Shown here: piece by piece, positions 50,132-64,000 of the stretch
Layout: each line of letters opens with the position of its first letter
How positions within the stretch are numbered: the first letter of the stretch is position 1
Virus record (IMG/VR): IMGVR_UViG_3300014202_000529
Span: 1-64,000 of that record
DNA from: a virus
Lineage: Duplodnaviria; Caudoviricetes
Length of the DNA stretch: 64,000 bases
Direction: 5' to 3' (one strand)
Position numbers and translations under genes: made by a program
Notes under the pieces: model-generated
What the model saw: the letters and a program-made list of their open reading frames with translations, nothing else
Database searches by the model: none
Told to the model about the DNA's origin: nothing

Positions 50132-50140
50132 ATATGTTTC

Positions 50141-50231: not shown

Positions 50232-50236
50232 ATAAT

Positions 50237-50570: not shown

Positions 50571-50575
50571 ATGTT

Positions 50576-50791
50576 CTACTTAGGTTGTGGAATTTCTCTA
50601 CCTGCTTCTAATTCAGCTTCCACCCAGGATTTTGCAACCTCGTTTAGATTATCGAATGCTTCTTGTGCAGTTTCACCTTGAGCAAAACATCCCTCGAATT
50701 CAGAAATGAATGAGAAATACCCACCTTCCTCTTCTGGCACTATCACTCGTCCATACGGTCTTTTTAGAATCTCGTCCACTATCTGATTCAT
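50576..50791 (-). CDS. hicB: HicB-like antitoxin (N-terminal domain only)
   Basis: EEEGGY.....EFEGCFAQGET.QEA..NL.E...W......GREIP.P; no hicA nearby. Confidence 0.85.
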   Translation of the reverse strand: MNQIVDEILKRPYGRVIVPEEEGGYFSFISEFEGCFAQGETAQEAFDNLNEVAKSWVEAELEAGREIPQPK

Positions 50792-50807
50792 AACGTTACC
50801 CCAAATA

Positions 50808-50898
50808 TGGCGGAAGAGGGAAGACTTGAACTCCAATGCTAATGATAGCATCCCATCGCTTTCCAAGCGAGTCCGGCAGCCTCTCCGGTTCCTCTTCC
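50808..50898 (-). tRNA. tRNA-Ser(GGA)
   Basis: Loop TTGGAAA; long variable arm; CCA. Confidence 0.88.
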
Positions 50899-50915
50899 AT
50901 TAAACTTGTTCGGCA

Positions 50916-51039
50916 TTCATATAAGTCTTGTCCATCAAAATATATGTGACACATGTATATGAAAGCTGGGGGCAATTAATCTCAGGATCACTAAAATTAA
51001 TCACCCCCGTATGCCCGCTTCCTCACATGGAGGCCGGGT
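50916..51039 (-). ncRNA. three-hairpin spacer RNA, unknown function
   Basis: CCCG/CGGG; GGGGGTGATTAATTTTAG/CTGAGATTAATTGCCCCC; TTCATATA/TATATGAA. Confidence 0.45.
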
Positions 51040-51045
51040 CTGAAA

Positions 51046-51135
51046 TGGCGGAAGACAGAGGACTTGAACCCCATACCCTTTCGAGTACAATCCGCTTTCA
51101 AGGCGGTTGTGTTGACCCGCAACACTTTATCTTCC
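51046..51135 (-). tRNA. tRNA-Ser(TGA)
   Basis: Loop CTTGAAA; long variable arm; CCA. Confidence 0.9.
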
Positions 51136-51141
51136 ATATTA

Positions 51142-51216
51142 TGGTGCTCCTACTGGGTATCGATCCCAGTCTTCTAGATTGAGAATCTAGCGACCTAGCC
51201 AGTAGTCTATAGGAGC
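51142..51216 (-). tRNA. tRNA-Glu(CTC)
   Basis: CTAGA-TTCTCAA-TCTAG; CCA. Confidence 0.92.
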
Positions 51217-51220
51217 TATG

Positions 51221-51295
51221 TGGTGGACCGCCGCGGTATTGCGCCGCGTTCCTCCGGTTAAGAGCCGGGAGCTTCACTATTAAAGCTTGCAGTCC
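51221..51295 (-). tRNA. tRNA-Lys(CTT)
   Basis: Loop CTCTTAA; T-loop CGCAATA; CCA. Confidence 0.88.
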
Positions 51296-51325
51296 GTATT
51301 TATTTTAATAATTTAATAGTCAACC

Positions 51326-53161
51326 TTAATGAAAACAAATATATTCTCGTTGAGCATTTGCTGACATTTGCCACCACATTCCTAGTCCACATTGGGTTGC
51401 GCTAGCTGCATCATTAATGAACTCAAATTTCGATGCTTCTATTTCGAAATTATTTGTGCAAATATCATCCGAACAACTTGTCTCAAAATCTACAACAGAT
51501 TTAAACCCAAAGGATCGATACATTATAGGCAAGTGACCATTTGATACTATAAACCTATTCTTTCGTATAGTTTGTGCCCCAACGTTCAACTTATTTGGAA
51601 GATAGAGTGCCGCGTATTCTGCACCAGGGGTATCAAGTCCTCCACAATTTATAAATATATTTTCCTCAATTATATGATTGGAATTTGTAAAGTTACTAGC
51701 ATTAAATGATATGCATGGACTGGTTGTATTGTTTAGAAAAATATTCCGCTTAACAATATTGCCCTGTGAAGGTCCAGCATATCCCTGAAACTCAAGAACT
51801 TGTGAAATATTCTTCTTGGTAAGAAAAATCCCACCAATTCTTTGATTGGTGAATAAATTACCCTCAAGAAGATTTCCATTTCCATTAAACTGTGCGCGTA
51901 CAGTCATATTGACTATTTTATTATTCCGAAACACATTACCTGTTGCTGCATTTAATCTAGAACCATCAATACCAAATGGACGACAATATTCAACAAACCA
52001 CCGACATGTAAATACTGTGTTTGATACAACATTATTTCTAATCGTTGTTGTTCCGCGAAGTGCCTCCACACTAAATCCAGTGTGTTGCCAATCAATAATA
52101 ATTAGATCATGAAACGAGTTATCATGCGACCCTTCAGAGAGAAGAATTCCATCACCAGTTACTCCATTGAATTCGTGTGCGTAGCCGGCGATTGATTCGG
52201 GTAGTCTTGGATCGATATTACAATTAAAAATTTCAATATTCCTTGATTCTGTACCTGTCCCTCTGCCGGTTGAATCTGTGATATACACCCCACGATGGGA
52301 CCATCGCCCAATTTCACAGTCATTTGTTGTTTTTAATCCAAAAATCCGTATATCTGTCGCGCCTAAAATATAAACAGAACCAAGTCCACCACCACCAACA
52401 TTTGGATTTATAATATCAAAAAACTTATTATTTGCCCTCATAAAACAAAGGGCAGAAAACGAACAGGGTACATTGGTAGATGAGAGAGTTTTAACCACCA
52501 TCAATTTTATTGATGGATTTGATGTCGATGGTAAATATAATCGTTTATTGGGGGCATCAAACCACCATCCGCGAACCGGACCATTTGGTGTTGAGGATTG
52601 ACCCAAGAGAGACTTTACCTCAGACTGCATATGTTCAATGTCATTTAACCACACTCTTTTTGGTGGGTTAATATACGATGGTAGAGAAAGGTACCAAACA
52701 CCTTCACTTTCTTTTACCCAGTTGGCAGCCTGCAGCGCCTCGGTTAAAATTGTTTGATTAAGAATTCTACCTGGATTTCTGGGACAATCGAAACGAATTG
52801 TAATATGTCTGTCCGGCGTACCGGATGCAGAGGGTCCGACTAGAAATCCAGTAGTATGTAACCCACACACATAGACTGTATCCCCGGCATCAATTCCTGT
52901 TACTGGAGTCCAATTCAACCCACTGTCGGTTGAATTGAATGCACCACTCCCCCCCAATGATTCTGCGCATTCATATGAGAGTCCATTACCGTTAATGGAA
53001 CACTCTACTTTTGGTCTCACATACCACGTATTGTTGGCTTCAGACCCAACCAATGCTGGTGCTGGCGGATTAAGTGGGGTCCAAGATGCCCCCATAACTG
53101 TATATTGAACAAGAAACAATGATGAGGTTATTATTAAAAATAATATTGACAATAATTTCAT
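51326..53161 (-). CDS. exported parallel beta-helix (pectate lyase-like) protein
   Basis: Hydrophobic N-terminus (MKLLSILFLII...); WYVRP...GNG.SY, AGDTVYVCG and repeated N-x-(I/F)-x-x-N turns. Confidence 0.75.
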   Translation of the reverse strand: MKLLSILFLIITSSLFLVQYTVMGASWTPLNPPAPALVGSEANNTWYVRPKVECSINGNGLSYECAESLGGSGAFNSTDSGLNWTPVTGIDAGDTVYVCGLHTTGFLVGPSASGTPDRHITIRFDCPRNPGRILNQTILTEALQAANWVKESEGVWYLSLPSYINPPKRVWLNDIEHMQSEVKSLLGQSSTPNGPVRGWWFDAPNKRLYLPSTSNPSIKLMVVKTLSSTNVPCSFSALCFMRANNKFFDIINPNVGGGGLGSVYILGATDIRIFGLKTTNDCEIGRWSHRGVYITDSTGRGTGTESRNIEIFNCNIDPRLPESIAGYAHEFNGVTGDGILLSEGSHDNSFHDLIIIDWQHTGFSVEALRGTTTIRNNVVSNTVFTCRWFVEYCRPFGIDGSRLNAATGNVFRNNKIVNMTVRAQFNGNGNLLEGNLFTNQRIGGIFLTKKNISQVLEFQGYAGPSQGNIVKRNIFLNNTTSPCISFNASNFTNSNHIIEENIFINCGGLDTPGAEYAALYLPNKLNVGAQTIRKNRFIVSNGHLPIMYRSFGFKSVVDFETSCSDDICTNNFEIEASKFEFINDAASATQCGLGMWWQMSANAQREYICFH

Positions 53162-53172
53162 AATTGATACCG

Positions 53173-53250
53173 TGGTGTCCCCGGTTGGATTTAAACCAAC
53201 GATCTCCACCTTCGCAGGGTGGCGTGATATTCGGGCTTCACTACAGGGAC
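53173..53250 (-). tRNA. tRNA-Arg(GCG)
   Basis: CCACC-CTGCGAA-GGTGG; CCA. Confidence 0.88.
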
Positions 53251-53256
53251 GTTAAT

Positions 53257-53353
53257 TGGTGCACCCCCAGTCCTTTAGGGACCATTATATCATCCAACAG
53301 ATTTAGCTCTATCTGTCTATGATGTTTCTTCACCCGCGTCCAGGTGAGGGTGC
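53257..53353 (-). ncRNA. non-canonical tRNA-like RNA with CCA end
   Basis: GCACCCT/GGGGTGC+ACCA acceptor stem and three internal hairpins; no TTC loop and no 7-nt anticodon loop. Confidence 0.65.
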
Positions 53354-53359
53354 TCTATT

Positions 53360-53434
53360 TGGTGCACGGTATAGGTACTGCCCCTATCTTGTCTCGCTTG
53401 TAAGGCGAGTGCATTCCTTCCCTGCCCACCGTGC
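53360..53434 (-). tRNA. tRNA-Val(TAC)
   Basis: CTCGC-CTTACAA-GCGAG; T-loop GGCAGTA; CCA. Confidence 0.88.
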
Positions 53435-53435
53435 G

Positions 53436-53645
53436 TTAGTCGATAATTCTATGGTCTTCGTATATGTCAATTGCTTGCTTTAACTGCTTTCTAATCTCTC
53501 TTGTATTACCTTTTTCAGCAAGCAACTCAATCTCAAGCTTATGTATGCGCTTCATCAACTTCATGCATCCAGGAATAGCTTCTTGTTCACAAGCAATAAG
53601 TTCCTGTCTATGCCGTTTTCCTAGCTTCATCCAATCACTAGACAT
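53436..53645 (-). CDS. hypothetical protein
   Basis: GGAG RBS; MSSDWMKLGK...; fills the gap between two tRNAs. Confidence 0.6.
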   Translation of the reverse strand: MSSDWMKLGKRHRQELIACEQEAIPGCMKLMKRIHKLEIELLAEKGNTREIRKQLKQAIDIYEDHRIID

Positions 53646-53657
53646 AATACTCCACAA

Positions 53658-53734
53658 TGGAGCCGCTTGTTGGACTTGCACCAACCATCTCCACTTTACC
53701 AAAGTGGCGTGTCAACTACCTCTACTTAAGCGGC
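53658..53734 (-). tRNA. tRNA-Thr(GGT)
   Basis: CCACT-TTGGTAA-AGTGG; CCA. Confidence 0.88.
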
Positions 53735-53741
53735 GTAAACT

Positions 53742-53749
53742 TATTTATA
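53742..53749 (-). promoter_or_regulatory. T4-type late promoter inside the tRNA array
   Basis: Exact TATAAATA just upstream of tRNA-Thr(GGT). Confidence 0.6.
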
Positions 53750-53751
53750 AA

Positions 53752-54063
53752 ATAGGACAACATGTAAGCGGCGTTCTGTTTACAATCATCATTTCTCTAG
53801 GAGTATCATTACTGATACCCTCAAGCTGCCTACCCGCGAGTTTTGTACGAGCAGTACACTCGCCTATTTGGCATTGCACCAGGTAGAGATTGCCCGTTTC
53901 ACTTCCTCATCATCGAGGAGCGATGAACCCCCTCATTGATGATGATTACTCGTCTCTGTAGCTCTAATCATCAGGTTACCCTGTGTGGTCGTTAACCACT
54001 ACCATGCTCTAGGTGCGCCGACTTTCCTCTAGCTGTGTGCTAGCGATGATTCTGTTGTCCTAT
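53752..54063 (-). ncRNA. rnpB: RNase P RNA
   Basis: P1 ATAGGACAACA/TGTTGTCCTAT; GAGGAAAGTC, ACAGAGAC, GTGAAACGG and AACAGAACGCCGCTTA conserved regions in the expected order. Confidence 0.93.
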
Positions 54064-54077
54064 AATCTCCTTTCATG

Positions 54078-54154
54078 TGGTACCTGGGGTGGGACTCGAA
54101 CCCACAGGAATCTGTTTTTGAGACAGACATGTTTGCCAATTACATCACCCAGGC
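54078..54154 (-). tRNA. tRNA-Leu(CAA), no long variable arm
   Basis: TCTGT-CTCAAAA-ACAGA; CCA. Confidence 0.9.
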
Positions 54155-54336
54155 AATTTTTCTAATACCTTATTCCCCATAATTAAGTTTGCATCAAGAA
54201 CCCTAAGCTCACTTGCGACATTAAATGCGACCACCCAATCTTCCTGAGTCACCGCTTCCTGCAATTCAGATTTTAACCGTTCTCGATTTTCTTCTAGGAT
54301 GTTCACTGCAACTTCAAATGCTCTCCGTTCTGTCAT
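54145..54336 (-). CDS. hypothetical protein
   Basis: MTERRAFEV...; stop codon lies inside tRNA-Leu(CAA). Confidence 0.6.
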   Translation of the reverse strand: MTERRAFEVAVNILEENRERLKSELQEAVTQEDWVVAFNVASELRVLDANLIMGNKVLEKLPG

Positions 54337-54337
54337 A

Positions 54338-54733
54338 TTATACCCCCACAGAAGACTGAATAGCAATGCCAAACATTTTGTGGTGCTGATCAATATAATA
54401 GTTGTTATACTTAGGGACCCCAGATTTACCCGAAGGTCCATCAGCATATTCCATCTCTACTGTTAGAAATGCCCCTTCGGATAACCTCTTAAATTGCATT
54501 TCGGCATTATACTTATAAGTTTGTCTCAATTCGTAGGGGATTCCTAGAGTGTCAAAGAGTATCCTATTTCTCATCCCGCGCTTTGGACAAACGATATGTA
54601 ATTCACCAGGTAACCAATAATCACCCGCTGTGCAACTGTAAGGTCTCACATACCAATGAGTCTGGACCGCTATACAATTCTTGAACATGTGTGTAGAACC
54701 ACAACCACATTGAAATCTTTTGTTCTTGTACAT
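54338..54733 (-). CDS. Cys-containing hypothetical protein
   Basis: GAGG RBS; WYVRPYSCTAGDYW motif. Confidence 0.7.
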   Translation of the reverse strand: MYKNKRFQCGCGSTHMFKNCIAVQTHWYVRPYSCTAGDYWLPGELHIVCPKRGMRNRILFDTLGIPYELRQTYKYNAEMQFKRLSEGAFLTVEMEYADGPSGKSGVPKYNNYYIDQHHKMFGIAIQSSVGV

Positions 54734-54749
54734 ATGTCCTCATAATATA

Positions 54750-54828
54750 TGGTGCCGTGGGTGGGAGTCGAACCCACAAGCGAATCGTTTTAAGCGACCC
54801 AGGTATGCCAAATTCCCTTCACCACGGC
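54750..54828 (-). tRNA. tRNA-Leu(TAA), no long variable arm
   Basis: GGTCG-CTTAAAA-CGATT; CCA. Confidence 0.9.
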
Positions 54829-54829
54829 A

Positions 54830-54904
54830 TGGAGCCCAAGTCCAGATTTGCGCTGGATCTTACAGTTTACGAAACTATCGTGCCACTATCAACACTTCAT
54901 GGGC
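54830..54904 (-). tRNA. tRNA-Thr(CGT)
   Basis: ATAGT-TTCGTAA-ACTGT; CCA. Confidence 0.85.
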
Positions 54905-54909
54905 ATATA

Positions 54910-54984
54910 TGGTGGGTTGGCTAGGTACTGCCCCTAGTTCCTCCGGTTAAAAGCCGGGAGCTTCACTTACAAAGCTTACAACCC
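54910..54984 (-). tRNA. tRNA-Lys(TTT)
   Basis: Loop CTTTTAA; T-loop GGCAGTA; CCA. Confidence 0.88.
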
Positions 54985-54991
54985 AAAATCG

Positions 54992-55122
54992 CTTGCATTG
55001 CTACCGTTACAACAAAAAGACTGTTACCCACTGTCTCTGATGCATGCAGGGATTCTTCCTCTCTAGAATCAGAAGAATCTATCGTGGATACCGTCTTCTA
55101 CGGAGTTGAACCGTTCCGCAAG
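54992..55122 (-). ncRNA. circularly permuted tRNA-like RNA A
   Basis: CTTGC-GGA-ACGG TTCAACT CCGT-AGAAGAC...GTCTTTT-TG-TTGT AACGGTA GCAA-T-GCAAG. Confidence 0.7.
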
Positions 55123-55141
55123 TCAAAAATATTTCTTACGA

Positions 55142-55217
55142 TGGAGCGGGCTATGGGAATTGCACCCATACGTCCAGGTTGGAAGCCTAGCATGCTGCTG
55201 TTGAACATCAAGCCCGC
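55142..55217 (-). tRNA. tRNA-Gly(TCC)
   Basis: CTAGG-CTTCCAA-CCTGG; CCA. Confidence 0.9.
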
Positions 55218-55228
55218 ATATGATCGGA

Positions 55229-55257
55229 ATTTTAACACATCACCCTACGTCTGTCAA
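55229..55257 (-). promoter_or_regulatory. sigma70-type promoter
   Basis: TTGACA-17-TAAAAT with TGTG extended -10. Confidence 0.75.
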
Positions 55258-55275
55258 TACTATATCGCCAGTTTT

Positions 55276-55350
55276 TGGAGCGGATGGTGGGAGTCGAACC
55301 CACGTGATCTTCCTTGGCAAGGAAGCACATAACCGTTCTGTCACATCCGC
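55276..55350 (-). tRNA. tRNA-Gly(GCC)
   Basis: CTTCC-TTGCCAA-GGAAG; CCA. Confidence 0.92.
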
Positions 55351-55352
55351 AA

Positions 55353-56375
55353 TTAAACTTGATTAATGTGTCTCATGAACTTCTTCGTCTCAACCCACCA
55401 AGGCATATTCTCATCCCAGTCTACCACATCCCAACTACCAGTCCAAATTATCACACCATCTGCAATCTCATGAAGGACTTGAAGCTGCAATGCCCAAAAT
55501 TCCGGTTCAACTAACCTTAACCCATTAGGGGGTGGAAGAGAATTGTGATACCTTGGCCATATAAAAGGATATATGGGTTTATCACCTGCATATCTCCTGG
55601 CTTCTTTAATATTTTCTACCGCGTATCGAACCCAACTATCCCAAGGGTCATTTCTTAGTACATACAAGGATGGTGCAAGAAAACTGACTTTATCCACTAC
55701 AGACTGAACGAGTGCGTTTTCTGACTGCCACCTATTGTATCCACTCACTCTTCGTATTGCTCGATCATAATCCCGACGAGGCAAAAACCCATACATCCCC
55801 AAGTTCATGGTGGGTTTTATTTCCCGCATCCAATCAAAAACTTGGATATGATTCGCTCTCTGTTGCGCCCCAAACTCATCATCCGTATAAAACTGGTAAC
55901 TCTCAATGTCGGTGATAATTGGGGTGTCATCATCATACTGAAGTGCATTGTTTGCAATATTCTTAACTGTTCCCTCATGGGGAAGAGCTAAATGATCCGG
56001 TTGACCATTGAAAAATGTATTCTCGAAATAGATTCGCGCTCGTTTGATGCCATATAACCCCAAAAGATCCGGTTTATTCAGATAGGGGGTTGTGTCGAAA
56101 ATTCTAAACGGGTGCGTTTTAAGTTTTTTTCGGGTCTGTCGGACATCTTGCTCTAAGCTTCTGTCCCACCCCGTACCGTTCCACCGATATATTTTACCAT
56201 CCCGTTGATCGATCCGATGAACCCCTGTGTGTCCTGGGGTTAGGTTTTCTATTTCTCTGTCGCCATATTGATATGCTGCAGTCCAATTTGTCAGTACCGT
56301 TGGATCATTATTCGCTTTCAACCAAAGAACTTTATCATTAGAGTGATAAAATAACTCCCCGTTCCACCTAGACAT
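55353..56375 (-). CDS. putative glycoside hydrolase (hyaluronidase/GH56-like barrel)
   Basis: I.DIE, G.YG..P, FLAPSLY, KPIYPFIWP.YH and ADGVIIW motifs. Confidence 0.6.
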   Translation of the reverse strand: MSRWNGELFYHSNDKVLWLKANNDPTVLTNWTAAYQYGDREIENLTPGHTGVHRIDQRDGKIYRWNGTGWDRSLEQDVRQTRKKLKTHPFRIFDTTPYLNKPDLLGLYGIKRARIYFENTFFNGQPDHLALPHEGTVKNIANNALQYDDDTPIITDIESYQFYTDDEFGAQQRANHIQVFDWMREIKPTMNLGMYGFLPRRDYDRAIRRVSGYNRWQSENALVQSVVDKVSFLAPSLYVLRNDPWDSWVRYAVENIKEARRYAGDKPIYPFIWPRYHNSLPPPNGLRLVEPEFWALQLQVLHEIADGVIIWTGSWDVVDWDENMPWWVETKKFMRHINQV

Positions 56376-56525
56376 GTTACTTCTTACACTCTGAGCAAGG
56401 GTACCAGTATCCTATTGTACCATTGACGCAAAGATGAGCATTCATATGATCGAACTCCGCCTCCTTGCGCGATGGCGATTTCTTTTTAGTATTCCTGCTC
56501 ACATGAACCTCCATAATATAATAAA

Positions 56526-56600
56526 TGGTGCGAGGTCGGAGAATCGAACTCCGGTGTCAGGCTCTTCAGGCCCGCGCTTTGCCAACTAAGCTAACCCCGC
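56526..56600 (-). tRNA. tRNA-Phe(GAA)
   Basis: CGGGC-CTGAAGA-GCCTG; CCA. Confidence 0.92.
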
Positions 56601-56604
56601 ATAA

Positions 56605-56682
56605 TGGCTCCGGTCCCAGGGATCGAACCTGGCTCATTCCGCATTAACAGTGCGGCGCACTCACCCTGAGTGCTAGACCGGA
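56605..56682 (-). tRNA. tRNA-Asn(GTT)
   Basis: CCGCA-CTGTTAA-TGCGG; CCA. Confidence 0.92.
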
Positions 56683-56700
56683 ATAATCTCTATTCAATTT

Positions 56701-56776
56701 TGGTAGGGACACCTGGGCTTGAACCAAGTCTTAAGGTTTCAGAGACCTTCGTGCTCCCAATTACACCATATCCCCA
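56701..56776 (-). tRNA. tRNA-Gln(CTG)
   Basis: AAGGT-CTCTGAA-ACCTT; CCA. Confidence 0.9.
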
Positions 56777-56779
56777 CTA

Positions 56780-57091
56780 CTATCGTGCATGTTTAGGTAA
56801 TATTTCAGGGAAATACCTAGGGCACAAATAAACCATCAGTATCACAACAATAATACTAGAACCCCCCAAACCAAAGACCACGGACCAATCCCAATCCAAC
56901 CCCCACCCTCTAATAGTGGTGAAAGTTATAGATTTTCCTATGATAACCCCCAGACCCAACCAAATAGCAAACCAAAGTAACCAATCAGAAACCATAGCAA
57001 CAAACATTCCACAAACAATAAACAATGCTCCCATAGTTTTCCCAACAACCCCAAATTCATCAAGCAACTCATTAAGTTGATTGTCATTCAT
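56780..57091 (-). CDS. membrane protein
   Basis: About three hydrophobic segments. Confidence 0.65.
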   Translation of the reverse strand: MNDNQLNELLDEFGVVGKTMGALFIVCGMFVAMVSDWLLWFAIWLGLGVIIGKSITFTTIRGWGLDWDWSVVFGLGGSSIIVVILMVYLCPRYFPEILPKHAR

Positions 57092-57608
57092 TACAAAGCT
57101 CCCCATTAAACCATTTAAAACGTAACTTAACTTCTTCTAGAGCAATGGGTTTATATTCGGTCTGCTCAACACAAACACACACATACCACGGATCATCTAG
57201 AACATTTGCATGTGTGTGACCATGAACATTTGCAACAAATCTTCCCTTACTCTCAGGATGCACTGGAATATGGGATAACAGCATCCTATCGAGAATGTGA
57301 TATCCTCGAATATCACGAAAATGCTTCAGGTAATCGGTGATCTTGAAGATATCATGATTACCCTTAATTAAAACCTTGTCACCATTCAATCGTTGCAAAA
57401 CCGCTAATGCTTTTCTAGCAATAACCACATCCCCCAGGTGATACACTTTATCATTCGGACGGACAACCTTGTTCCATTCCTGGATCATGTATTCATCCAT
57501 TTCCTCTGGTGAATCCCACGGTCTCAGTTTGGTACCGTCATTTCTGAGGAACTTACAGACCCCAGCATGACTAAAATGTGTATCGGCTGTAAGAAATATG
57601 TTACTCAT
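57084..57608 (-). CDS. calcineurin-like phosphoesterase
   Basis: ADTHFSH, YHLGD, KGNHD, LSHIP and HGHTH motifs. Confidence 0.9.
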   Translation of the reverse strand: MSNIFLTADTHFSHAGVCKFLRNDGTKLRPWDSPEEMDEYMIQEWNKVVRPNDKVYHLGDVVIARKALAVLQRLNGDKVLIKGNHDIFKITDYLKHFRDIRGYHILDRMLLSHIPVHPESKGRFVANVHGHTHANVLDDPWYVCVCVEQTEYKPIALEEVKLRFKWFNGELCNE

Positions 57609-57612
57609 AATA

Positions 57613-57686
57613 TGGCCGGGACACTCGGTAACGCTCCGAGTCCAACTGGTTCAAAGCCAGCTATGCTTCTTTTACACCATGTCCCA
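57613..57686 (-). tRNA. tRNA-Gln(TTG)
   Basis: GCTGG-CTTTGAA-CCAGT; T-loop AGCGTTA; CCA. Confidence 0.85.
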
Positions 57687-57972
57687 AAAACTGATCCAAT
57701 CCTTCTTTATTTGCGAGTCTCTTTAACGTTTCTGCATGACACCGTTTTGGTGCACAATGACACTTGAGATTCTTACCAACCAACGGATCTAACCAATTGG
57801 GGTCTTCTTTTAATCTCTTCGTTGCATACTCTTCAAACTCATCACATACTCTGTTGCGTTCCTCAAGAGTATCTATGGTCATTATGAAGGGGTTACCCCA
57901 AGGAGTTGATCGATCCACCAAGACCGCTCGACTCATGACTCCTTCAACATCTCTGATATGGTAAATCTTCAT
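57661..57972 (-). CDS. DUF4326 family protein
   Basis: R.TPWGNPF and L.GKNL.CHCAPKRCHA motifs; stop codon lies inside tRNA-Gln(TTG). Confidence 0.85.
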   Translation of the reverse strand: MKIYHIRDVEGVMSRAVLVDRSTPWGNPFIMTIDTLEERNRVCDEFEEYATKRLKEDPNWLDPLVGKNLKCHCAPKRCHAETLKRLANKEGLDQFLGHGVKEA

Positions 57973-57976
57973 AATA

Positions 57977-58066
57977 TGGCGGAAGATACAGGATTTGAAC
58001 CTGTGTGGGAGTTACCCCGCATTGTTTAGCAAACAAGCCCGTTTAGCCAGACTCCGGCAATCTTCC
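57977..58066 (-). tRNA. tRNA-Ser(GCT)
   Basis: Loop TTGCTAA; long variable arm; CCA. Confidence 0.9.
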
Positions 58067-58073
58067 TCGTCTA

Positions 58074-58148
58074 TGGAGTCGCCGATAGGACTCGAACCTA
58101 CATACAACTGCTTTGCAGGCAGCGACCTAGCCTTTCAGTCACGGCGAC
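58074..58148 (-). tRNA. tRNA-Cys(GCA)
   Basis: GCTGC-CTGCAAA-GCAGT; U73; CCA. Confidence 0.92.
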
Positions 58149-58153
58149 ATATA

Positions 58154-58229
58154 TGGCGCGCCCGATGGGTAACGATCCCACTTCATTCCTGATTGACAAT
58201 CAGGCGTCCATCCTACAGACTCCGAGCGC
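58154..58229 (-). tRNA. tRNA-Asp(GTC)
   Basis: CCTGA-TTGTCAA-TCAGG; G73; CCA. Confidence 0.88.
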
Positions 58230-58243
58230 ATTCTATTATTTTC

Positions 58244-58327
58244 TGGTGGACCATCAAGGAATCGAACCTTGTGGGAATTAACGACTGGTTTACAGCCAGC
58301 CCCGCCTCCATAACGGTCTAATGGTCC
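58244..58327 (-). tRNA. tRNA-Tyr(GTA)
   Basis: GCTGG-CTGTAAA-CCAGT; CCA. Confidence 0.88.
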
Positions 58328-58335
58328 ATAAATCT

Positions 58336-58425
58336 TGGGTGCCTAGGTCCCCGGTTATTTCCAGACTGGGGGGACTCCACGAATGTCTGGCCAGATGTTC
58401 CCATGTCAACACCCTGGGGAACCCG
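58336..58425 (-). ncRNA. pseudoknot-rich RNA, unknown function
   Basis: GTTCCC/GGGAAC and CCAGAC/GTCTGG stems with loop pairings GTCCCC/GGGGAC and GGGTG/CACCC; directly downstream of a promoter. Confidence 0.55.
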
Positions 58426-58439
58426 CGACTCTATTTCAG

Positions 58440-58468
58440 ATTCTAACACACCATCGGGAACATGTCAA
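58440..58468 (-). promoter_or_regulatory. sigma70-type promoter
   Basis: TTGACA-17-TAGAAT with TGTG extended -10. Confidence 0.78.
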
Positions 58469-58477
58469 CTACTAATT

Positions 58478-58566
58478 TGGTCCACCCGTTAGGAATCGAA
58501 CCTAAACGAGGCTCCAATCTAGAGCGAGGGGTTTATAAGACCCCCTTGCCTCCAAGGCGCGGGTGG
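58478..58566 (-). tRNA. tRNA-Ile(TAT) with long variable arm and minimal D arm
   Basis: GGGGT-CTTATAA-ACCCC; V arm GCTCTA/TGGAGC; canonical T arm; CCA. Confidence 0.8.
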
Positions 58567-58576
58567 ATATTTTATT

Positions 58577-58652
58577 TGGTGCCTGTGGTAGGATTTGAAC
58601 CTACACTTGACGGCTTCTAAGACCGTTGACTCTGCCGTTGGTCTACACAGGC
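58577..58652 (-). tRNA. tRNA-Leu(TAG), no long variable arm
   Basis: ACGGT-CTTAGAA-GCCGT; CCA. Confidence 0.9.
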
Positions 58653-58657
58653 GATAT

Positions 58658-59116
58658 TTAAAATTTCTTACTGACTTCATTTGAAAGGGGACTCAAGTTT
58701 CCCTTTGCATCCTTCGCTTTCAGTGCAAAGTAATATGTAGCACCTTTCAAGATCCCTGTCAACTTCAATTCTGTTACTAACCCAATTTCAATTGGTGTCT
58801 GATACTTTCCCGGCTCCAGACCCCAATACACCAGATACCCACTTGTTACCCCATCAACCGGTGGAGCCCATGTTAATGTTGCTTCCCCCATAATCACTAC
58901 AGGTGGGGTTGCTGCTGCGATTTCAGCAAGCATTGCATCTTTACCACCAGGATTCGACCATGATTTACCTACAAACTTACCAGAGTGGCATTCATATACA
59001 TTCGACTTATTGTTGTTATGACACCCATATGAATCCAATGCACCAGCATGTGGAAACGCTGAGGAGGCACTAAGGAATAAGAACAATGTGGCAACCACAC
59101 TCACTATAATATTCAT
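58658..59116 (-). CDS. exported YHYH-like plus fibronectin type III protein
   Basis: Signal peptide; H.G.LD.YGCH...Y.CH; TLTW.P, GY.VYWG, TYYFA..A.D..GN.S..S motifs. Confidence 0.8.
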   Translation of the reverse strand: MNIIVSVVATLFLFLSASSAFPHAGALDSYGCHNNNKSNVYECHSGKFVGKSWSNPGGKDAMLAEIAAATPPVVIMGEATLTWAPPVDGVTSGYLVYWGLEPGKYQTPIEIGLVTELKLTGILKGATYYFALKAKDAKGNLSPLSNEVSKKF

Positions 59117-59130
59117 ACATCCTCCGGTTA

Positions 59131-59204
59131 TGGTGGCGGTAGAAGGAGTTGCACCTTCTCAGTACGACTTATGAAATCGTCTGGCTGCGCTTGTGCTTAC
59201 CGCC
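59131..59204 (-). tRNA. tRNA-Met(CAT), elongator-type (Ile2 not excluded)
   Basis: ACGAT-TTCATAA-GTCGT; G1-C72; irregular D arm; CCA. Confidence 0.75.
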
Positions 59205-59210
59205 TTTATA

Positions 59211-59286
59211 TGGTAGCGGGTTAACGAGTTGCACGTTAAACTCAAGGTTATGAGCCTTGACGGGTCGCTGTCCCCTTCCACCCGCA
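59211..59286 (-). tRNA. tRNA-Met(CAT), initiator-like
   Basis: 1:72 mismatch; CAAGG-CTCATAA-CCTTG; CCA. Confidence 0.8.
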
Positions 59287-59300
59287 AATTTTAAAACTGA

Positions 59301-59416
59301 GAGGCCGTGCTTCCGTTACACCACATTCCTACGTTACCGATCTTACTGGTGGCCATCCAGGAGTCTTAATTCATGATCGGTGTTCAGAACAATCGGATTT
59401 GAACCGTTCCTGCCCC
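59301..59416 (-). ncRNA. circularly permuted tRNA-like RNA B
   Basis: GGGGC-AGGA-ACGG TTCAAAT CCGA-TTGTTCT...GGAATG-TG-GTGT AACGGAA GCAC-G-GCCTC. Confidence 0.68.
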
Positions 59417-59420
59417 GTTA

Positions 59421-59497
59421 TGGTGCCTCTGGTAGGACTCGAACCTACACTAAACAGGCTCTCGACCTGCCGACTCTGCCAATTGGTCTACAGAGGC
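59421..59497 (-). tRNA. tRNA-Leu(GAG), no long variable arm, C33
   Basis: GCAGG-TCGAGAG-CCTGT; CCA. Confidence 0.85.
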
Positions 59498-59501
59498 GAA
59501 A

Positions 59502-59579
59502 TGGTCTGGGCGGCAGGATTTGAACCTGCGATTTCTCGCCTCCAAAGCGAGAGGAGTGGCCGGACTCTCCTACACCCAG
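59502..59579 (-). tRNA. tRNA-Pro(TGG)
   Basis: CTCGC-TTTGGAG-GCGAG; A37; CCA. Confidence 0.9.
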
Positions 59580-59587
59580 ATATATTT

Positions 59588-59662
59588 TGGCGCTCCTTGT
59601 GGGTATCGATCCCACTTCATATGCTTGAAAGGCATATATCCTAGCCAGTAGACGAAAGGAGC
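59588..59662 (-). tRNA. tRNA-Glu(TTC)
   Basis: TATGC-CTTTCAA-GCATA; CCA. Confidence 0.92.
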
Positions 59663-59670
59663 AAAAATTT

Positions 59671-59744
59671 TGGTGGACCTTGACGGTAACCCTCCGTCCC
59701 CGCCCGGGTGCAAACCGGGAATGCTCGTTCAACACCTAAGGCCC
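59671..59744 (-). tRNA. tRNA-Ala(TGC), divergent copy
   Basis: G3-U70; CCCGG-TTTGCAC-CCGGG; T-loop AGGGTTA; CCA. Confidence 0.8.
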
Positions 59745-59747
59745 AAT

Positions 59748-60005
59748 ACCCACCATTTAACCTCCACGAAGCAGGAGGCACCATCTTTCTGGGGTCCATA
59801 AGGAGAGTCCCAGAAATTAAGCTGGTGGACTTACTTACCGTCTAAGGGTATCTAGTGAACCAATCTAGCCCTTTATCGGCTACGGAGCGATCCACAACCC
59901 CTAGACTACCTCTATCTATGTAACCCCCGCACCACGTCTTTGAAGCCGATCCAATCCAATTTAACGGCGCGAGCGACTTCCTCTAACAATGATACTGAGG
60001 GGTCC
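59748..60005 (-). ncRNA. about 260-nt structured RNA, unknown function
   Basis: ATCGGCT/AGCCGAT, TTTCTGGG/CCCAGAAA, GCCTCC/GGAGGT and CACCA/TGGTG stems. Confidence 0.5.
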
Positions 60006-60079
60006 TGGGGTGATCGGTGGGTAATGCTCCCACTTTTCCTGGGCCACAACCAGGCGCATTTCTTTTATGCTACGACCAC
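60006..60079 (-). tRNA. tRNA-His(GTG)
   Basis: CCTGG-TTGTGGC-CCAGG; C73; -1 position is T; CCA. Confidence 0.85.
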
Positions 60080-60084
60080 AACTG

Positions 60085-60275
60085 ATCCACTATTTTTCAA
60101 GTGGAAATTGTTACCCCTTTACCCCACCGTGCGTAATGAGAACCACCGCAACAAAGGCAGTGGAAGAGATAACTCCATCGATCCGGGTCTCATGGAGCCG
60201 GAAATTGCGGGCATTTGATGGGTAGCGCCCTACTACCTTAGTGCAGTCTTCCTCTTGCGGAGTAGTTTCTGCCAC
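60085..60275 (-). ncRNA. about 190-nt tandem-pseudoknot RNA, unknown function
   Basis: GCAG/CTGC with CTAC/GTAG; GGTAG/CTACC with GGGC/GCCC; TCCGG/CCGGA with CTCCAT/ATGGAG; CCACTGC/GCGGTGG; TCCACT/AGTGGA. Confidence 0.5.
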
Positions 60276-60276
60276 A

Positions 60277-60352
60277 TGGAGCCGCCAACTGGACTTGCAC
60301 CAGCCTATTCCTGCTTACAAGACAGGCGATCAACTATCTGACCCATAGCGGC
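60277..60352 (-). tRNA. tRNA-Thr(TGT)
   Basis: CCTGT-CTTGTAA-GCAGG; CCA. Confidence 0.88.
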
Positions 60353-60405
60353 ATATCTCTTTTAACACATAAACCAACAGTATCGTCATTGACGCATAGA
60401 CCAGT

Positions 60406-60505
60406 GTATTGGGTGCAGGATTTCTGGGATGGTGTGCCCAAAGCCTACCTGCGCTTCTCACGGTGCACCTACTGAGTGTGCTTGGTGTTTACACTAACCC
60501 AATAC
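60406..60505 (-). ncRNA. multibranch RNA immediately 3' of the HNH gene
   Basis: 9-bp closing stem GTATTGGGT/ACCCAATAC enclosing CTCA/TGAG and GCAGG/CCTGC arms. Confidence 0.5.
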
Positions 60506-60513
60506 CCCGTTTC

Positions 60514-61038
60514 CTATTTCAATTCGACATTCCAGTACAAGTAATCTGCCCATGTTTCTGGCATCTTGCGCAATCCCAACGTCACTGTTACCACTTGGGA
60601 CCATACTGGTTGCTTAGGTTTCTTGAGCAACTTCATTCCTGCTTGCTCTGGTGTCCTACCCTCTTTCTTAGAGTTACATGGGACACATGCCGTTACAATG
60701 TTCTCCCAAGTCTTCGTTCCACCCTGAGCAACCGGTTTCACGTGGTCAAATGTCAACTCTTCTGATTCAAACTTTTGAGCACAGTACTGGCAATGAAAAC
60801 CGTCCCTAGTGAAAATGTTCAAACGAGTAAATTTCACTGGTGCTTTTCTGCGAAAACGAACCGGAACCAACATCCTCAACACCGAAGGAATCTTCATGCT
60901 AAACGAAATAGAATGGATTTCCTCTTCGTGCTCTTCAATAACTTCTACTTTACCAGTCCAGAGCAAAGTGATTGCTCGCTGCCAATTGACAACTTGTAGA
61001 GGTTCATATGAGCTGTTCAAGAGCAATGTCATATGCAT
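60514..61038 (-). CDS. HNH endonuclease
   Basis: LLLN.SYEPL, R.NIF.RD...CQYC, LT.DHV.P...GG..TWEN.VTAC..CN..K..RTP motifs. Confidence 0.92.
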   Translation of the reverse strand: MHMTLLLNSSYEPLQVVNWQRAITLLWTGKVEVIEEHEEEIHSISFSMKIPSVLRMLVPVRFRRKAPVKFTRLNIFTRDGFHCQYCAQKFESEELTFDHVKPVAQGGTKTWENIVTACVPCNSKKEGRTPEQAGMKLLKKPKQPVWSQVVTVTLGLRKMPETWADYLYWNVELK

Positions 61039-61062
61039 GATAACCACCCTCCAGTTTCCACT

Positions 61063-61091
61063 ACTCTAACACACCACAATTCACTTGTCAA
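61063..61091 (-). promoter_or_regulatory. sigma70-type promoter
   Basis: TTGACA-17-TAGAGT with TGTG extended -10. Confidence 0.7.
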
Positions 61092-61099
61092 CTAGTATT

Positions 61100-61173
61100 T
61101 GGCATGGGATGCAGGAGTCGAACCTGCGCCGGCTGTTTTGGAGACAGCAATGCTACCGTAACACTTATCCCAT
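61100..61173 (-). tRNA. tRNA-Trp(CCA)
   Basis: GCTGT-CTCCAAA-ACAGC; G73; CCA. Confidence 0.93.
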
Positions 61174-61178
61174 ATATT

Positions 61179-61252
61179 TGGTACGCCTCCACAGAATTGC
61201 ACTGTGATCTCCCGCTAATCAGGCGAGGGTACTGCTGTTGTACGAGAGGCGT
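61179..61252 (-). tRNA. tRNA-Ile(GAT)
   Basis: CTCGC-CTGATTA-GCGGG; T37; CCA. Confidence 0.85.
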
Positions 61253-61261
61253 ATTAAATTT

Positions 61262-61336
61262 TGGTGGAGGCTGGCGGTTCTGCCCCGCCGACTTCTCGGT
61301 GCAAGCGAGATGGTTTCCTAATTAGCCTAAGCCCCC
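61262..61336 (-). tRNA. tRNA-Ala(TGC)
   Basis: G3-U70; TCTCG-CTTGCAC-CGAGA; T-loop GGCAGAA; CCA. Confidence 0.88.
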
Positions 61337-61374
61337 AAAAAACAAAAAGCCGAAGGGTGTCTCTCCCCTCGGCT
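61337..61374 (-). terminator. intrinsic terminator abutting the first tRNA (attenuator)
   Basis: AGCCGAGGGG-AGAGACA-CCCTTCGGCT followed by TTTTGTTTTTT. Confidence 0.85.
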
Positions 61375-61387
61375 CCATCTTTCCGTT

Positions 61388-61417
61388 TCCCCAGTAGCAC
61401 TGGGGAGTTGTGCTACC
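61388..61417 (-). promoter_or_regulatory. two mutually exclusive hairpins (putative attenuator switch)
   Basis: GGTAGCAC/GTGCTACT versus TCCCCAGT/ACTGGGGA; CTCCCC is complementary to GGGGAG in the terminator. Confidence 0.6.
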
Positions 61418-61421
61418 GATC

Positions 61422-61529
61422 TTATTTTTTACCTGTTGCTTCATTAATACGGGCGAGTGGTTGCCATCCCATATAAAAGGGTGAATTATGAGTATTGATA
61501 TCTTTTAAACCACCTATAGAACTCTGCAT
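61422..61529 (-). CDS. 35-aa putative leader peptide
   Basis: AAGGAAG before ATG; MQSSIGGLKDINTHNSPFYMGWQPLARINEATGKK*. Confidence 0.6.
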   Translation of the reverse strand: MQSSIGGLKDINTHNSPFYMGWQPLARINEATGKK

Positions 61530-61540
61530 GACTTCCTTAC

Positions 61541-61569
61541 ATGATACTCGAAAATGATTATGATGTCAA
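61541..61569 (-). promoter_or_regulatory. sigma70-type promoter of the leader
   Basis: TTGACA-17-TATCAT. Confidence 0.78.
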
Positions 61570-61592
61570 CAACTATTTAGCAAACTTAAACT

Positions 61593-61600
61593 TATTTATA
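61593..61600 (-). promoter_or_regulatory. T4-type late promoter upstream of the leader
   Basis: Exact TATAAATA; a CTAAATA variant also at 61574-61580. Confidence 0.65.
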
Positions 61601-61606
61601 ATACTT

Positions 61607-61768
61607 TTACTTTTGTGGTACTAACCCATCGAATTGAAAGCCAAAAATCCTCACATACCTGTATATATATGAAGAATTGTACGATGTTTCCCCATACGCA
61701 AAACACCATTTCCTGAAACTATTGCACTGACCCACGCGCACATACCCATCATAATGTAATTTGGTCAT
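61607..61768 (-). CDS. 53-aa hypothetical protein
   Basis: GGGGTG RBS; MTKLHYDGYVRVGQC... Confidence 0.45.
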   Translation of the reverse strand: MTKLHYDGYVRVGQCNSFRKWCFAYGETSYNSSYIYRYVRIFGFQFDGLVPQK

Positions 61769-61799
61769 TTGTCACCCCAATTGTCTTAGTGTGGGATAC

Positions 61800-61829
61800 A
61801 TGATAACACAGAATAGATGAGTATGTCAA
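61800..61829 (-). promoter_or_regulatory. sigma70-type promoter
   Basis: TTGACA-18-TATCAT with TGTG extended -10. Confidence 0.65.
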
Positions 61830-61851
61830 CACCCATTCCAAATACTGATTA

Positions 61852-63093
61852 TTATGCTCGATACTGGACCACTACGCGATGCTGTTCCAAGGTTATTATA
61901 TCAGTTGGTTCAACCACCTTACTGCAGGAGAAATAAACTACCCAATCACTATCAGTGTTGATTGCATGGTTGGTATTGACGTTTGCAGAAGTGCTGCCCC
62001 CATAAAAATTTTGCACTGCGAGGGAACTTATTTGTTGTTGTGTATTTCCACGGTTATAGATGATTCCAGATTGATGGAAGGATATATGATTTGTTGCTGT
62101 GATACTATTGATAATCTGACTAGCAGGGCCCAATGCTCGAATACTTATTATCTTGTTGTTGACTGTTCCCCCCATCGTCCAGGTTGCAAAACACTGGACC
62201 CAACCATTTGGACCCATAGATCCACCCGGCACAGTAACCGTTGCCATCGTTTGGAAACCTGTGGTATTTGACGCCACCACCGGAATGGCACTACTAAACA
62301 CTGCAACAGGTTGGTTGTTTGATAATATTAGTGCCGCATTAGAATGGGCTCTTGCATATTGGTCTGTTGTGTTTGCCACTGCAACTGTGACTACATCTGT
62401 GCTTTGATTTGTGGTGATGCTGATACCATCCCCAGCTACCAATGTCAAAGTGTCTGCATTTGCGTCAGAAACAATATTATTTTGACCTGATACTGAAATA
62501 GTAGAAAAGCTATTGATAGAAGATGAAATGGTTATGGTGTTGTCCGACCCGGACACATCGATACCAGAACCAGGAGAAAGCACAACAACATCTGCATTGC
62601 TCTCTGCGAGCAAGCTTCCCTTATCCTGGATGCCAATAGACGAAAAAGCATTCTGTGCTCTAAGGTTTGCCAAATCAAAAGAAGAATTGGAATGGGCGCG
62701 GGCAAACCCATCCAGTGCTGTTGATGTAACAGTAATGGTGTTGTTCCCCGGATCTGTGGTGATGGAAGTTCCAGTTCCGGGCGTGATTACTAAAGTATCA
62801 GAATTGGATGCAGCAACAATGTTGTTTTGCCCAGACACTTCGATTGTCACAAATGCATCCTGCACTGTGGAATTTGCCTTCTCGAATGCGGCATTTGCTA
62901 CAGTTCTTGCTTCATCATCTGAGTTTCCGTTTGAAATGGTAGTGTTCGCCCCACCAGGTGTTGCTCCATCGCTTAAACGAATAGATCCAGCACCCGGATC
63001 ATAAAACAAATCACCAGGTTGACCAATGAAATTAGTGACTTGCGTTCCACCTAGTTTTTGTACAAGTACTTTATACGTAACGTTGTTCGCCAT
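61852..63093 (-). CDS. fibre-like virion protein with internal repeats
   Basis: GDLFYDP...IRLSDGATPGG N-terminus; repeated F.TI.VSGQNN.V.D...DTLTL..G.G.SITT and D.(F/Y)ARAH.N units. Confidence 0.7.
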   Translation of the reverse strand: MANNVTYKVLVQKLGGTQVTNFIGQPGDLFYDPGAGSIRLSDGATPGGANTTISNGNSDDEARTVANAAFEKANSTVQDAFVTIEVSGQNNIVAASNSDTLVITPGTGTSITTDPGNNTITVTSTALDGFARAHSNSSFDLANLRAQNAFSSIGIQDKGSLLAESNADVVVLSPGSGIDVSGSDNTITISSSINSFSTISVSGQNNIVSDANADTLTLVAGDGISITTNQSTDVVTVAVANTTDQYARAHSNAALILSNNQPVAVFSSAIPVVASNTTGFQTMATVTVPGGSMGPNGWVQCFATWTMGGTVNNKIISIRALGPASQIINSITATNHISFHQSGIIYNRGNTQQQISSLAVQNFYGGSTSANVNTNHAINTDSDWVVYFSCSKVVEPTDIITLEQHRVVVQYRA

Positions 63094-63121
63094 AATACCC
63101 CCAGACACCTTTCACTATAAA

Positions 63122-64000
63122 TTATGCTCCGTATTGTGCTATTACCGAATACTGTTCTAATGTCACTCGTTCAGTTGCAACCGTTTTAGTCACTGCGAAA
63201 TGGATTTCCCAATCATTGTCAGTATTAATTGTATGGCTAAAACCACCTTCTGAAGAAACCGCACCATAGTAAAACTGAGAAACGGGACCACTAATTTGTG
63301 AATTGACATTGCCCCTATTATGTATATCACCAACCATATACAGCGAAATCTGGTTTGTTGCTGAGAGGTTTGTAAGTCTTGTTCCAGTGGAACTAAGTGT
63401 GCGAATGCTAAGGTCCTTAGCCGAGGCACTTGCATCCATTGTCCACAATGAAACACATTGTACCCATCCATTGGGACCCAATAGACCACCAGGTACCGTA
63501 ACAGTAACAAGCGATTGAGCCGTATTTACATTTGCAGCCAGGGTTGACACCGCAGAGTGTGCGACGATCATAGGACCGGTATTTAGTGCCGCAAATGCAC
63601 CATTCGCATGATCTCTTGCAAATTGGTCAATTGTATTTGCTGCCGAAATAGTCAGAGTAGCGTTCGCTGGATCTGTGGTGATGGATATTCCGTTTCCTGT
63701 TGCCAAGGTCAAGGTATCGGCATTTGCATCTGCAACCACATTATTTTGGCCAGAGACCGCAATGGTCGAAAAGCTATTGATCGAAGATCTGATAATGATG
63801 GTATTGTCAGACCCGGACATATCAATACCAGCACCAGGTGAAAGGATCACACTATCTGCATTCGTGGCTGCAGTTACGTTTCCCTTATCTTCCACTGCAA
63901 TGATGCTGAAAACATTTTGCCCCCTGGTATTTGCAAGATTGAATGCAGAATTGACATGAGTTCTTGCGTATGTGTCGTTTGCTGTTGTTGTGATTGTAAG
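63122..64000 (-). CDS. paralogue of 61852..63093 (start outside window)
   Basis: Frame open to the window edge; same repeats and TVTVPGG..GPNGWVQC C-terminal domain. Confidence 0.7.
   Translation of the reverse strand, partial: LTITTTANDTYARTHVNSAFNLANTRGQNVFSIIAVEDKGNVTAATNADSVILSPGAGIDMSGSDNTIIIRSSINSFSTIAVSGQNNVVADANADTLTLATGNGISITTDPANATLTISAANTIDQFARDHANGAFAALNTGPMIVAHSAVSTLAANVNTAQSLVTVTVPGGLLGPNGWVQCVSLWTMDASASAKDLSIRTLSSTGTRLTNLSATNQISLYMVGDIHNRGNVNSQISGPVSQFYYGAVSSEGGFSHTINTDNDWEIHFAVTKTVATERVTLEQYSVIAQYGA

Follow-up and report, generated by a model that had tools for sequence, protein, structure and literature searches.

We analysed a stretch of 64,000 nucleotides of viral DNA (hereafter the window), the first 64 kb of the complete 168,789-bp virus record IMGVR_UViG_3300014202_000529, which has terminal repeats. 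Judged by its baseplate, tail and gp32-like genes, the phage is a T4-like myovirus; the closest cultured phage is only 41% identical in baseplate gp6. On the minus strand, directly in front of an array of tRNA genes, lies a compact leader unit that is a candidate for ribosome-controlled transcription attenuation. It starts with a putative T4-type late promoter motif read in the sequence, TATAAATA (61593-61600), and a sigma-70-like promoter, TTGACA-17-TATCAT (61541-61569), which matched at 11 of 12 positions in a promoter scan. A purine-rich Shine-Dalgarno-like tract (61532-61538), likewise read in the sequence, precedes a leader open reading frame (ORF) from the ORF list, with an ATG start, 35 codons (61529-61425) and a TAA stop (61424-61422). 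Behind the stop codon lie two hairpins that exclude each other, hairpin A (61391-61419; 10-bp stem, 9-nt loop, -12.9 to -13.5 kcal/mol) and hairpin B (61388-61406; 8 bp formed by a C tract and a neighbouring G run, -13.1 kcal/mol). They are followed by an intrinsic terminator (61337-61376), the top terminator-like site of a 16-kb scan, with a stem of 12 pairs (61376-61346, about -19.4 kcal/mol) and a U tract that extends to 61337, the last base before a tRNA-Ala gene. The C tract in the hairpin A loop (61407-61402) is perfectly complementary over 6 nt to a G tract (61368-61363) in the 5' arm of the terminator. A previous description made from the letters alone (the sequence-only reading) had listed a late promoter followed by the TTGACA-17-TATCAT promoter, a 35-codon ORF, two overlapping exclusive hairpins and a strong terminator whose U tract touches the first tRNA, and all of these elements are present.

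Taken alone, the fold of the window has a modest z-score of -2.48; judged on its relatives, the leader unit is lifted far beyond chance. These relatives were reached via searches with RtcB and gp6, DNA patterns and a profile of the leader peptide. Seven diverged lineages of an uncultured T4-like clade carry the unit, each genome with a single copy that heads the tRNA array. Most tests were carried out on six of them, namely the window, G002, G009, G011, G003 and L050 (record G045); L274 is the seventh, and the copy in G001 is interrupted by the contig end. When a covariance model was trained on just the window and G002, the unit came out as its top hit at every related locus, and a rebuilt model applied to 54 records gave one true hit each in G000, G002, G003, G009, G011 and G045. 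A weak hit of the rebuilt model in G005 was rejected as an ordinary terminator after a long gene. No unit was detected by covariance model in G004 (80% complete) or in more distant complete records, incomplete records being uninformative. At least five different upstream gene contexts were found among the seven lineages (two pairs share one), indicating that the unit is part of the tRNA array rather than of the preceding gene.

Within 50,697 cultured phage records, neither the DNA of the 1.1-kb region nor the leader peptide (tblastn) gave a match. A DNA-pattern scan of metagenomes revealed four kin among the matches listed (at least 120 loci), three near G003 and one near G011, and more relatives surely exist beyond those listed. 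Pattern scans for the tRNA-Ile and for the terminator found kin in 4 of 15 and 3 of 11 loci, respectively; the other eight terminator matches were ordinary gene-end terminators, none of which had hairpin A or the leader ORF. A first peptide-alignment scan of viral contigs yielded nothing new, while a second one added L274. Another candidate from the second scan, L277, was a false locus, and the fibre-like protein encoded upstream of the unit, used as a search handle, led to one distant locus that was of no use.

The layout of the unit is maintained in all lineages. The late motif, identical or one letter shorter, is found in the same place in G002, G009, G011, L050, G003 and L274, and by eye all six also have a counterpart of the sigma-70-like promoter. 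A homologous ORF of 32-39 codons is in the same place in 7 of 7 DNA lineages, so that the expectation that relatives would keep the small ORF was borne out. Its stop codon, TAA in every case, is separated from hairpin A by a gap of 0-4 nt, and a terminating ribosome would therefore have to melt the 5' arm of this hairpin. In an alignment of nine sequences, 96.6% of cells were paired compared to 74.2 +/- 2.2% upon shuffling, and changes on both sides were observed in 15 of 21 pairs; none of 500 shuffles reached either value, and slid controls were 35-54% paired. Compensatory pairs amounted to 8 of 10 in hairpin A and 7 of 11 in the terminator. Stepwise folding revealed that hairpin A forms first in 7 of 7 lineages, and its loop is complementary to the top of the 5' arm of the terminator in every lineage. 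With the closing pair counted, the perfect complement comprises 6, 6, 8, 6, 7 and 6 nt across the six lineages (P 0.003-0.06 per lineage against shuffled loops); within the loop alone it comprises 5-7 nt, and in all six the number of Cs equals the number of Gs. Within the loop, the C tract invariably runs up to the 3' end, as would suit a stacked pseudoknot. Hairpin B reaches at least 6 bp in 5 of 7 lineages (the window, G002, G009, G011 and L274). An additional fold was restricted to the window and was discarded; at transcript lengths of 56-68, it joins the lower terminator arm to the 5' arm of hairpin A. Rfam searches matched only tRNA, tmRNA and RNase P models at 48000-64000 of the window (E up to 1) and only tRNA models in the six related loci (E up to 0.1), with no leader or T-box family.

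Directly behind the terminator, tRNA-Ala(UGC) (61265-61336, minus strand) starts at the base after the U tract. It scores 41.9 bits with the Rfam tRNA model, carries a G3:U70 pair and is 97-99% identical to the G001 and G002 copies; ARAGORN did not call it, even at relaxed settings. Its T loop is without the usual T-Psi-C letters, and the tRNA-Ala genes of relatives (L050 1090-1162, L129 1501-1573, L132 1671-1741) have a similarly odd T loop by eye. The following tRNA-Ile(GAU) and tRNA-Trp(CCA) (61100-61252, minus strand), identified by both ARAGORN and Rfam, are the last genes before a promoter-like site at 61091-61063. The distance from the U tract to the first tRNA is 0-4 nt in the window, G002, G011 and L050, leaving no room for a promoter, which supports the sequence-only reading, and the scan of the minus strand revealed no promoter-like site between 61540 and 61100. 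The first tRNAs would therefore be made by read-through only. Between the terminator and the first tRNA, the G003 and L274 lineages have 190-290 nt of unassigned sequence, which begins with a G run (L037 ~1800-1640, minus strand; L274 ~896-1188, plus strand; also L196); no Rfam match was obtained for this stretch.

The leader ORF of the window, presumably translated, encodes 18 amino-acid kinds (no Cys, no Val) and uses 28 different codons, all three for Ile among them, exactly as counted before. The sequence-only reading had called this diversity modestly above chance, which holds for the window alone (P about 0.07-0.13) but not for the comparative data, which lie far above every null tested. 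The six DNA lineages contain 18, 19, 20, 19, 18 and 19 kinds, whereas 15-16.5 are expected under three nulls, and their sum is 113 compared to 93-96 +/- 3.3-4. When residues common between lineages were held fixed, the expected sum was 102.2 +/- 2.4 (P = 5e-5), and for four deep groups a sum of 74 was observed versus 62.9 +/- 2.7 (P = 3e-5). The L274 leader peptide has all 20 kinds. A profile search of 1.84 billion representative proteins added nine homologues with 20, 20, 19, 20, 20, 16, 19, 20 and 20 kinds, two of which were trimmed before counting to the methionine that aligns with the others. Each of the 16 peptides (32-39 residues) thus has 16-20 kinds, and half of them (8) have all 20, so that the proposal of a peptide that samples almost all amino acids comes out stronger than it was originally put. 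Their sum of 307 exceeds the 297.1 +/- 2.4 obtained with only singleton residues randomised, and 0 of 392 spurious ORFs of similar length in the genome hold 20 kinds. In addition, His, Tyr and Arg occur at different positions among the homologues, as expected of selection for presence and not for position. Purifying selection was not seen over the whole peptide (pN/pS 0.56-1.32 over 21 pairs, pS 0.3-0.77), while the frame is open everywhere. By these comparisons, the leader peptide is weakly conserved overall but an amino-acid "pangram"; it matched no Pfam or PHROG family.

These peptide data bear on a rival explanation, in which the unit is a free-standing micropeptide gene that has a promoter and a terminator of its own, constitutive leakage through this terminator supplies the first tRNAs, and hairpin A serves mRNA stability or processing. 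While motifs common to the peptides would be in line with such a gene, as would the same loop type in strong terminators after ordinary genes of unrelated phages (8 of 11 loci), neither the hairpin nor the ORF was found at any of these eight terminators. Moreover, the pN/pS values are high for a functional protein, and the amino-acid kinds shift position while the full set is kept. Nor would a micropeptide gene account for a stop codon that stays 0-4 nt from a covarying hairpin, a loop that stays complementary to the terminator arm, and a unit that goes with the tRNA array instead of the upstream genes. We therefore regard a micropeptide gene as unlikely.

Our preferred interpretation, to which we would give about an even chance, is that this conserved unit attenuates transcription in a translation-coupled manner at the 5' end of the tRNA array. 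Transcripts from the late-type and sigma-70-type promoters would carry the leader ORF of 32-39 codons first, with its stop codon abutting hairpin A. With a ribosome delayed in the ORF or absent, hairpin A would fold at once and show the C tract in its loop; the C tract would then pair with the G tract of the terminator in a pseudoknot-like, presumably antiterminating helix, the terminator would be hindered, and RNA polymerase would read into tRNA-Ala, tRNA-Ile, tRNA-Trp and beyond. A fast ribosome at the stop codon would instead melt the 5' arm of hairpin A, so that the C tract would be taken by hairpin B (where present), and with the C tract trapped in this way the terminator would form and end transcription. 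Because the leader samples every amino acid, the lack of almost any usable tRNA would raise phage tRNA output. The unit fits an attenuator that would report overall decoding capacity, and the phage probably makes more of its own tRNA when decoding slows; that anticodon nucleases are among the physiological triggers is a speculation. A bolder version, offered tentatively and with less than even confidence, takes the leader as a universal decoding-capacity meter. One ribosome pass over all 20 amino acids in fewer than 40 codons would test every tRNA class, and any delay, caused for example by a host nuclease cutting one tRNA species or by decay of the host pool after shut-off, would flip the loop-pseudoknot switch and open transcription of the phage tRNA genes.

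Several observations weigh against the attenuator and its diversity-sensing leader. With regard to the peptide, the 16 sequences are homologues, so that the diversity tests are not fully independent, and they share motifs (Lys-Leu-Asn-Thr, an invariant Trp and an Ile-Gln-x-Gly stretch) that could point to a sequence-specific role instead; moreover, leader codon usage is ordinary, and rare codons are not in excess. With regard to expression, the Shine-Dalgarno-like tract of the window lies only 3-9 nt past the -10 hexamer, which ends 11 nt before the ATG, and transcripts of this adjacent promoter may therefore largely be without a ribosome-binding tract; the tract would be within transcripts from the late motif and from an upstream promoter (61829-61800). 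The promoter-like site at 61091-61063 comes after just three tRNAs (Ala, Ile and Trp), whereas in G011 no promoter-like site was seen by eye after the first tRNAs. Of the four internal promoters proposed earlier, those ending at 61063, 58440 and 55229 were recovered in the scan and the one at 53742 was not.

The RNA structures are open to similar objections. The covariation alignment was fitted to the structure of the model itself and thus favours it, and the earlier proposals fared unevenly in the relatives. Covariation is strong for hairpin A and the terminator, but the loop-terminator pairing, although complementary in every lineage, shows no clean double compensatory change, and the cross-lineage matrix reflects mostly a shared motif; as the lineages are out of register, covariation of this helix could not be counted on the alignment. 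Hairpin B, predicted from the window, is absent in the G003 clade and has 4 bp only in L050. The pseudoknot helix of 5-7 bp faces a terminator of -16 to -22 kcal/mol, so that it could act only kinetically, and pseudoknots are beyond what ViennaRNA scores. Finally, when the 13-16 nt expected to lie under a ribosome at the stop codon were blocked and the RNA was refolded, the predicted fold was altered in 6 of 6 lineages, yet not in a uniform manner. In the window and G002, hairpin B formed and the terminator was left free, in agreement with the proposal that a ribosome at the stop codon leads to hairpin B and termination. In G009, G011, G003 and L050, in contrast, it was the terminator arm that paired with the C tract, as expected for a switch of opposite direction. 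Since the masked fold is lineage-dependent, sequence alone does not settle the direction of the switch.

A rival explanation uses the same parts with the opposite, classical polarity. Here, a ribosome at the stop codon would hide the 5' arm of hairpin A, letting the C tract, together with the 3' arm, pair linearly with the 5' arm of the terminator, and read-through would follow. If no ribosome arrived in time, hairpin A would fold and the terminator would form, and tRNA output would follow active translation. Masked transcripts truncated before the 3' arm of the terminator, with the first 13-16 nt blocked, indeed fold an antiterminator in four lineages (G009, -18.6; G011, -13.7; L050, -12.6; G003, -9.4 kcal/mol), and the complement reaches into the 3' arm of hairpin A in G009, G011 and L050. 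However, the C tract is located in the loop of hairpin A and not in its stem, so hairpin A does not sequester it, and hairpin B, present in 5 of 7 lineages, would oppose the scheme; in the window and G002, the masked state consists of hairpin B plus the terminator. Furthermore, an all-amino-acid leader would then cut tRNA supply as decoding fails, which makes little functional sense. We therefore consider the classical direction rather unlikely and favour read-through upon slow translation, for three reasons: the C tract is shown in the hairpin A loop instead of being buried in a stem, hairpin B makes sense only as a trap for the C tract with hairpin A melted, and this direction would make functional sense of the peptide composition.

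A third explanation starts from the peptide motifs. In the manner of nascent-peptide arrest leaders such as TnaC, SpeFL or SecM, conserved residues would, in response to a small molecule or factor, arrest the ribosome close to or at its stop codon, and the stalled ribosome would set the choice of hairpin. The invariant Trp, 10-14 residues before the C terminus, and the other conserved motifs would suit such an arrest, as would a stop codon that abuts the switch hairpin. Set against this, the C-terminal residues vary, the window and G002 peptides retain few of the motifs, and selection for all 20 amino acids would be left unexplained, making an arrest module improbable. Least of all do we expect an RNA-only element (for example a small RNA, a signal for processing or a 5' leader that stabilises the tRNA precursor) with an incidental ORF, since despite covariation of both helices and a terminated product that would be a stable ~190-nt RNA ending in a hairpin, an ORF of this kind would not have remained open, at 32-39 codons, across 7 lineages whose divergence is close to saturation, nor have held its stop beside hairpin A or carried 18-20 amino-acid kinds, and no Rfam family describes the unit in the window or the six related loci.

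The genome setting shows which genes the proposed attenuator would regulate. ARAGORN predicted 28 tRNA genes in the whole 168.8-kb genome, all of them at 49172-61252 on the minus strand and all downstream of the leader unit, and Rfam added more tRNAs as well as two other RNAs within the array: a full-length bacterial class A RNase P RNA (53749-54062, minus strand; 208 bits, gathering score 100) and a tmRNA (50237-50570, minus strand; 100.8 bits, gathering score 47). Our literature search turned up no paper describing an RNase P RNA carried by a phage. An RNA-repair set of RtcB, an ATP-dependent ligase and an RlaP-family nucleotidyltransferase is encoded directly downstream of the array, and a HicB-like ORF lies inside it (region 43431-47752 and 50576-50866, minus strand); we count the RNA-repair genes 3' of the array as context for the attenuator. 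Directly after tRNA-Trp, an HNH endonuclease gene (60514-61047, minus strand) is found in the same place in G001 and G011, a placement that recalls the homing endonuclease of the T4 tRNA region, as described in the accessible part of PMC2330249. In G011, a unit of ~110 nt is repeated three times in tandem downstream of the HNH gene, after a strong promoter (L132 ~2620-2920, plus strand). On the other side, a 53-codon ORF (61607-61768, minus strand) without a Pfam or PHROG family lies directly upstream of the leader unit and has its own promoter (61800-61829, minus strand; 11 of 12 positions). It is preceded by genes for two paralogous fibre-like proteins with a common C-terminal domain (61852-63108 and 63122-64000, minus strand), the first of which shows, at its N terminus, 58% identity over 45 residues to a hypothetical protein of Synechococcus phage S-CAM7.

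To our knowledge, the control of phage tRNA arrays is essentially unknown. In the literature searched, which lay mostly outside subscription journals and supplements, neither an attenuator nor a leader peptide has, as far as we saw, been described in front of a phage tRNA array, nor has a leader peptide selected for all amino acids. That tRNA supply matters to phages is indicated by the accessible parts of PMC10264068 and PMC11555353, according to which phage tRNA arrays counter tRNA-targeting host defences; these parts do not treat regulation of the arrays, and in that of PMC10264068 no word begins with attenuat, leader, terminator or promoter. If the attenuator reading is true, it would provide a direct link between such defences and phage counter-measures, a new sensing rule for ribosome-mediated attenuation based on completeness instead of a codon run, and a compact natural part reporting global decoding capacity. 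The tRNA genes that a decoding-capacity meter would open are, in this genome, interleaved with genes for tmRNA and RNase P RNA, and the RNA-repair genes come after them. The all-amino-acid composition is, in addition, a simple signature that could be used to find similar leaders in other genomes.

Compared to known regulatory RNAs, the proposed competition of a short loop/terminator 5'-strand helix with the terminator resembles the fluoride, ZTP and preQ1 riboswitches. Whereas these are stabilised by a ligand, hairpin A as set by the ribosome would be the trigger here. T-box riboswitches also couple tRNA status to antitermination; in contrast to the phage unit, they bind tRNA directly, do so without an ORF and are far larger, and no Rfam T-box match was obtained here. 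Leader-peptide attenuators are known from the trp, his, leu, thr, pheA and ilv operons of enteric bacteria, and the distance from the stop codon to the terminator end, ~88 nt in the phage unit, is similar to the roughly 70 nt of the trp leader. As in the amino-acid operon attenuators described in the accessible parts of PMC1183508 and PMC3082878, the phage unit comprises a promoter, a short ORF, alternative pairings and a terminator before the regulated genes, and this layout, with the short ORF between promoter and terminator and 5' of the regulated genes, is the same in six further lineages. In both, ribosome position is expected to choose the fold, which for the phage follows from geometry only, i.e. 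from hairpin A lying 0-4 nt after the stop codon and from the altered fold upon masking. Unlike in amino-acid operons, the stop codon directly abuts the first hairpin and no Rfam leader family matches, the candidate antiterminator strand is located in a hairpin loop and not in a stem, and the regulated genes are tRNAs in a virus. The phage leader also contains no run of codons for one cognate amino acid, as the classical rule would have it, but maximal diversity. In bmrB-bmrCD of Bacillus subtilis, according to the accessible part of PMC4191407, slowed translation of the leader ORF from any cause results in terminator read-through, as is proposed for the phage unit, although attenuators of this type, as far as described there, gate bacterial resistance genes and respond to drugs. 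Our literature search revealed no all-amino-acid leader among attenuators that respond to general translation inhibition. Taken together, the unit would work like a leader-peptide attenuator but depart from the classical codon-run sensing rule.

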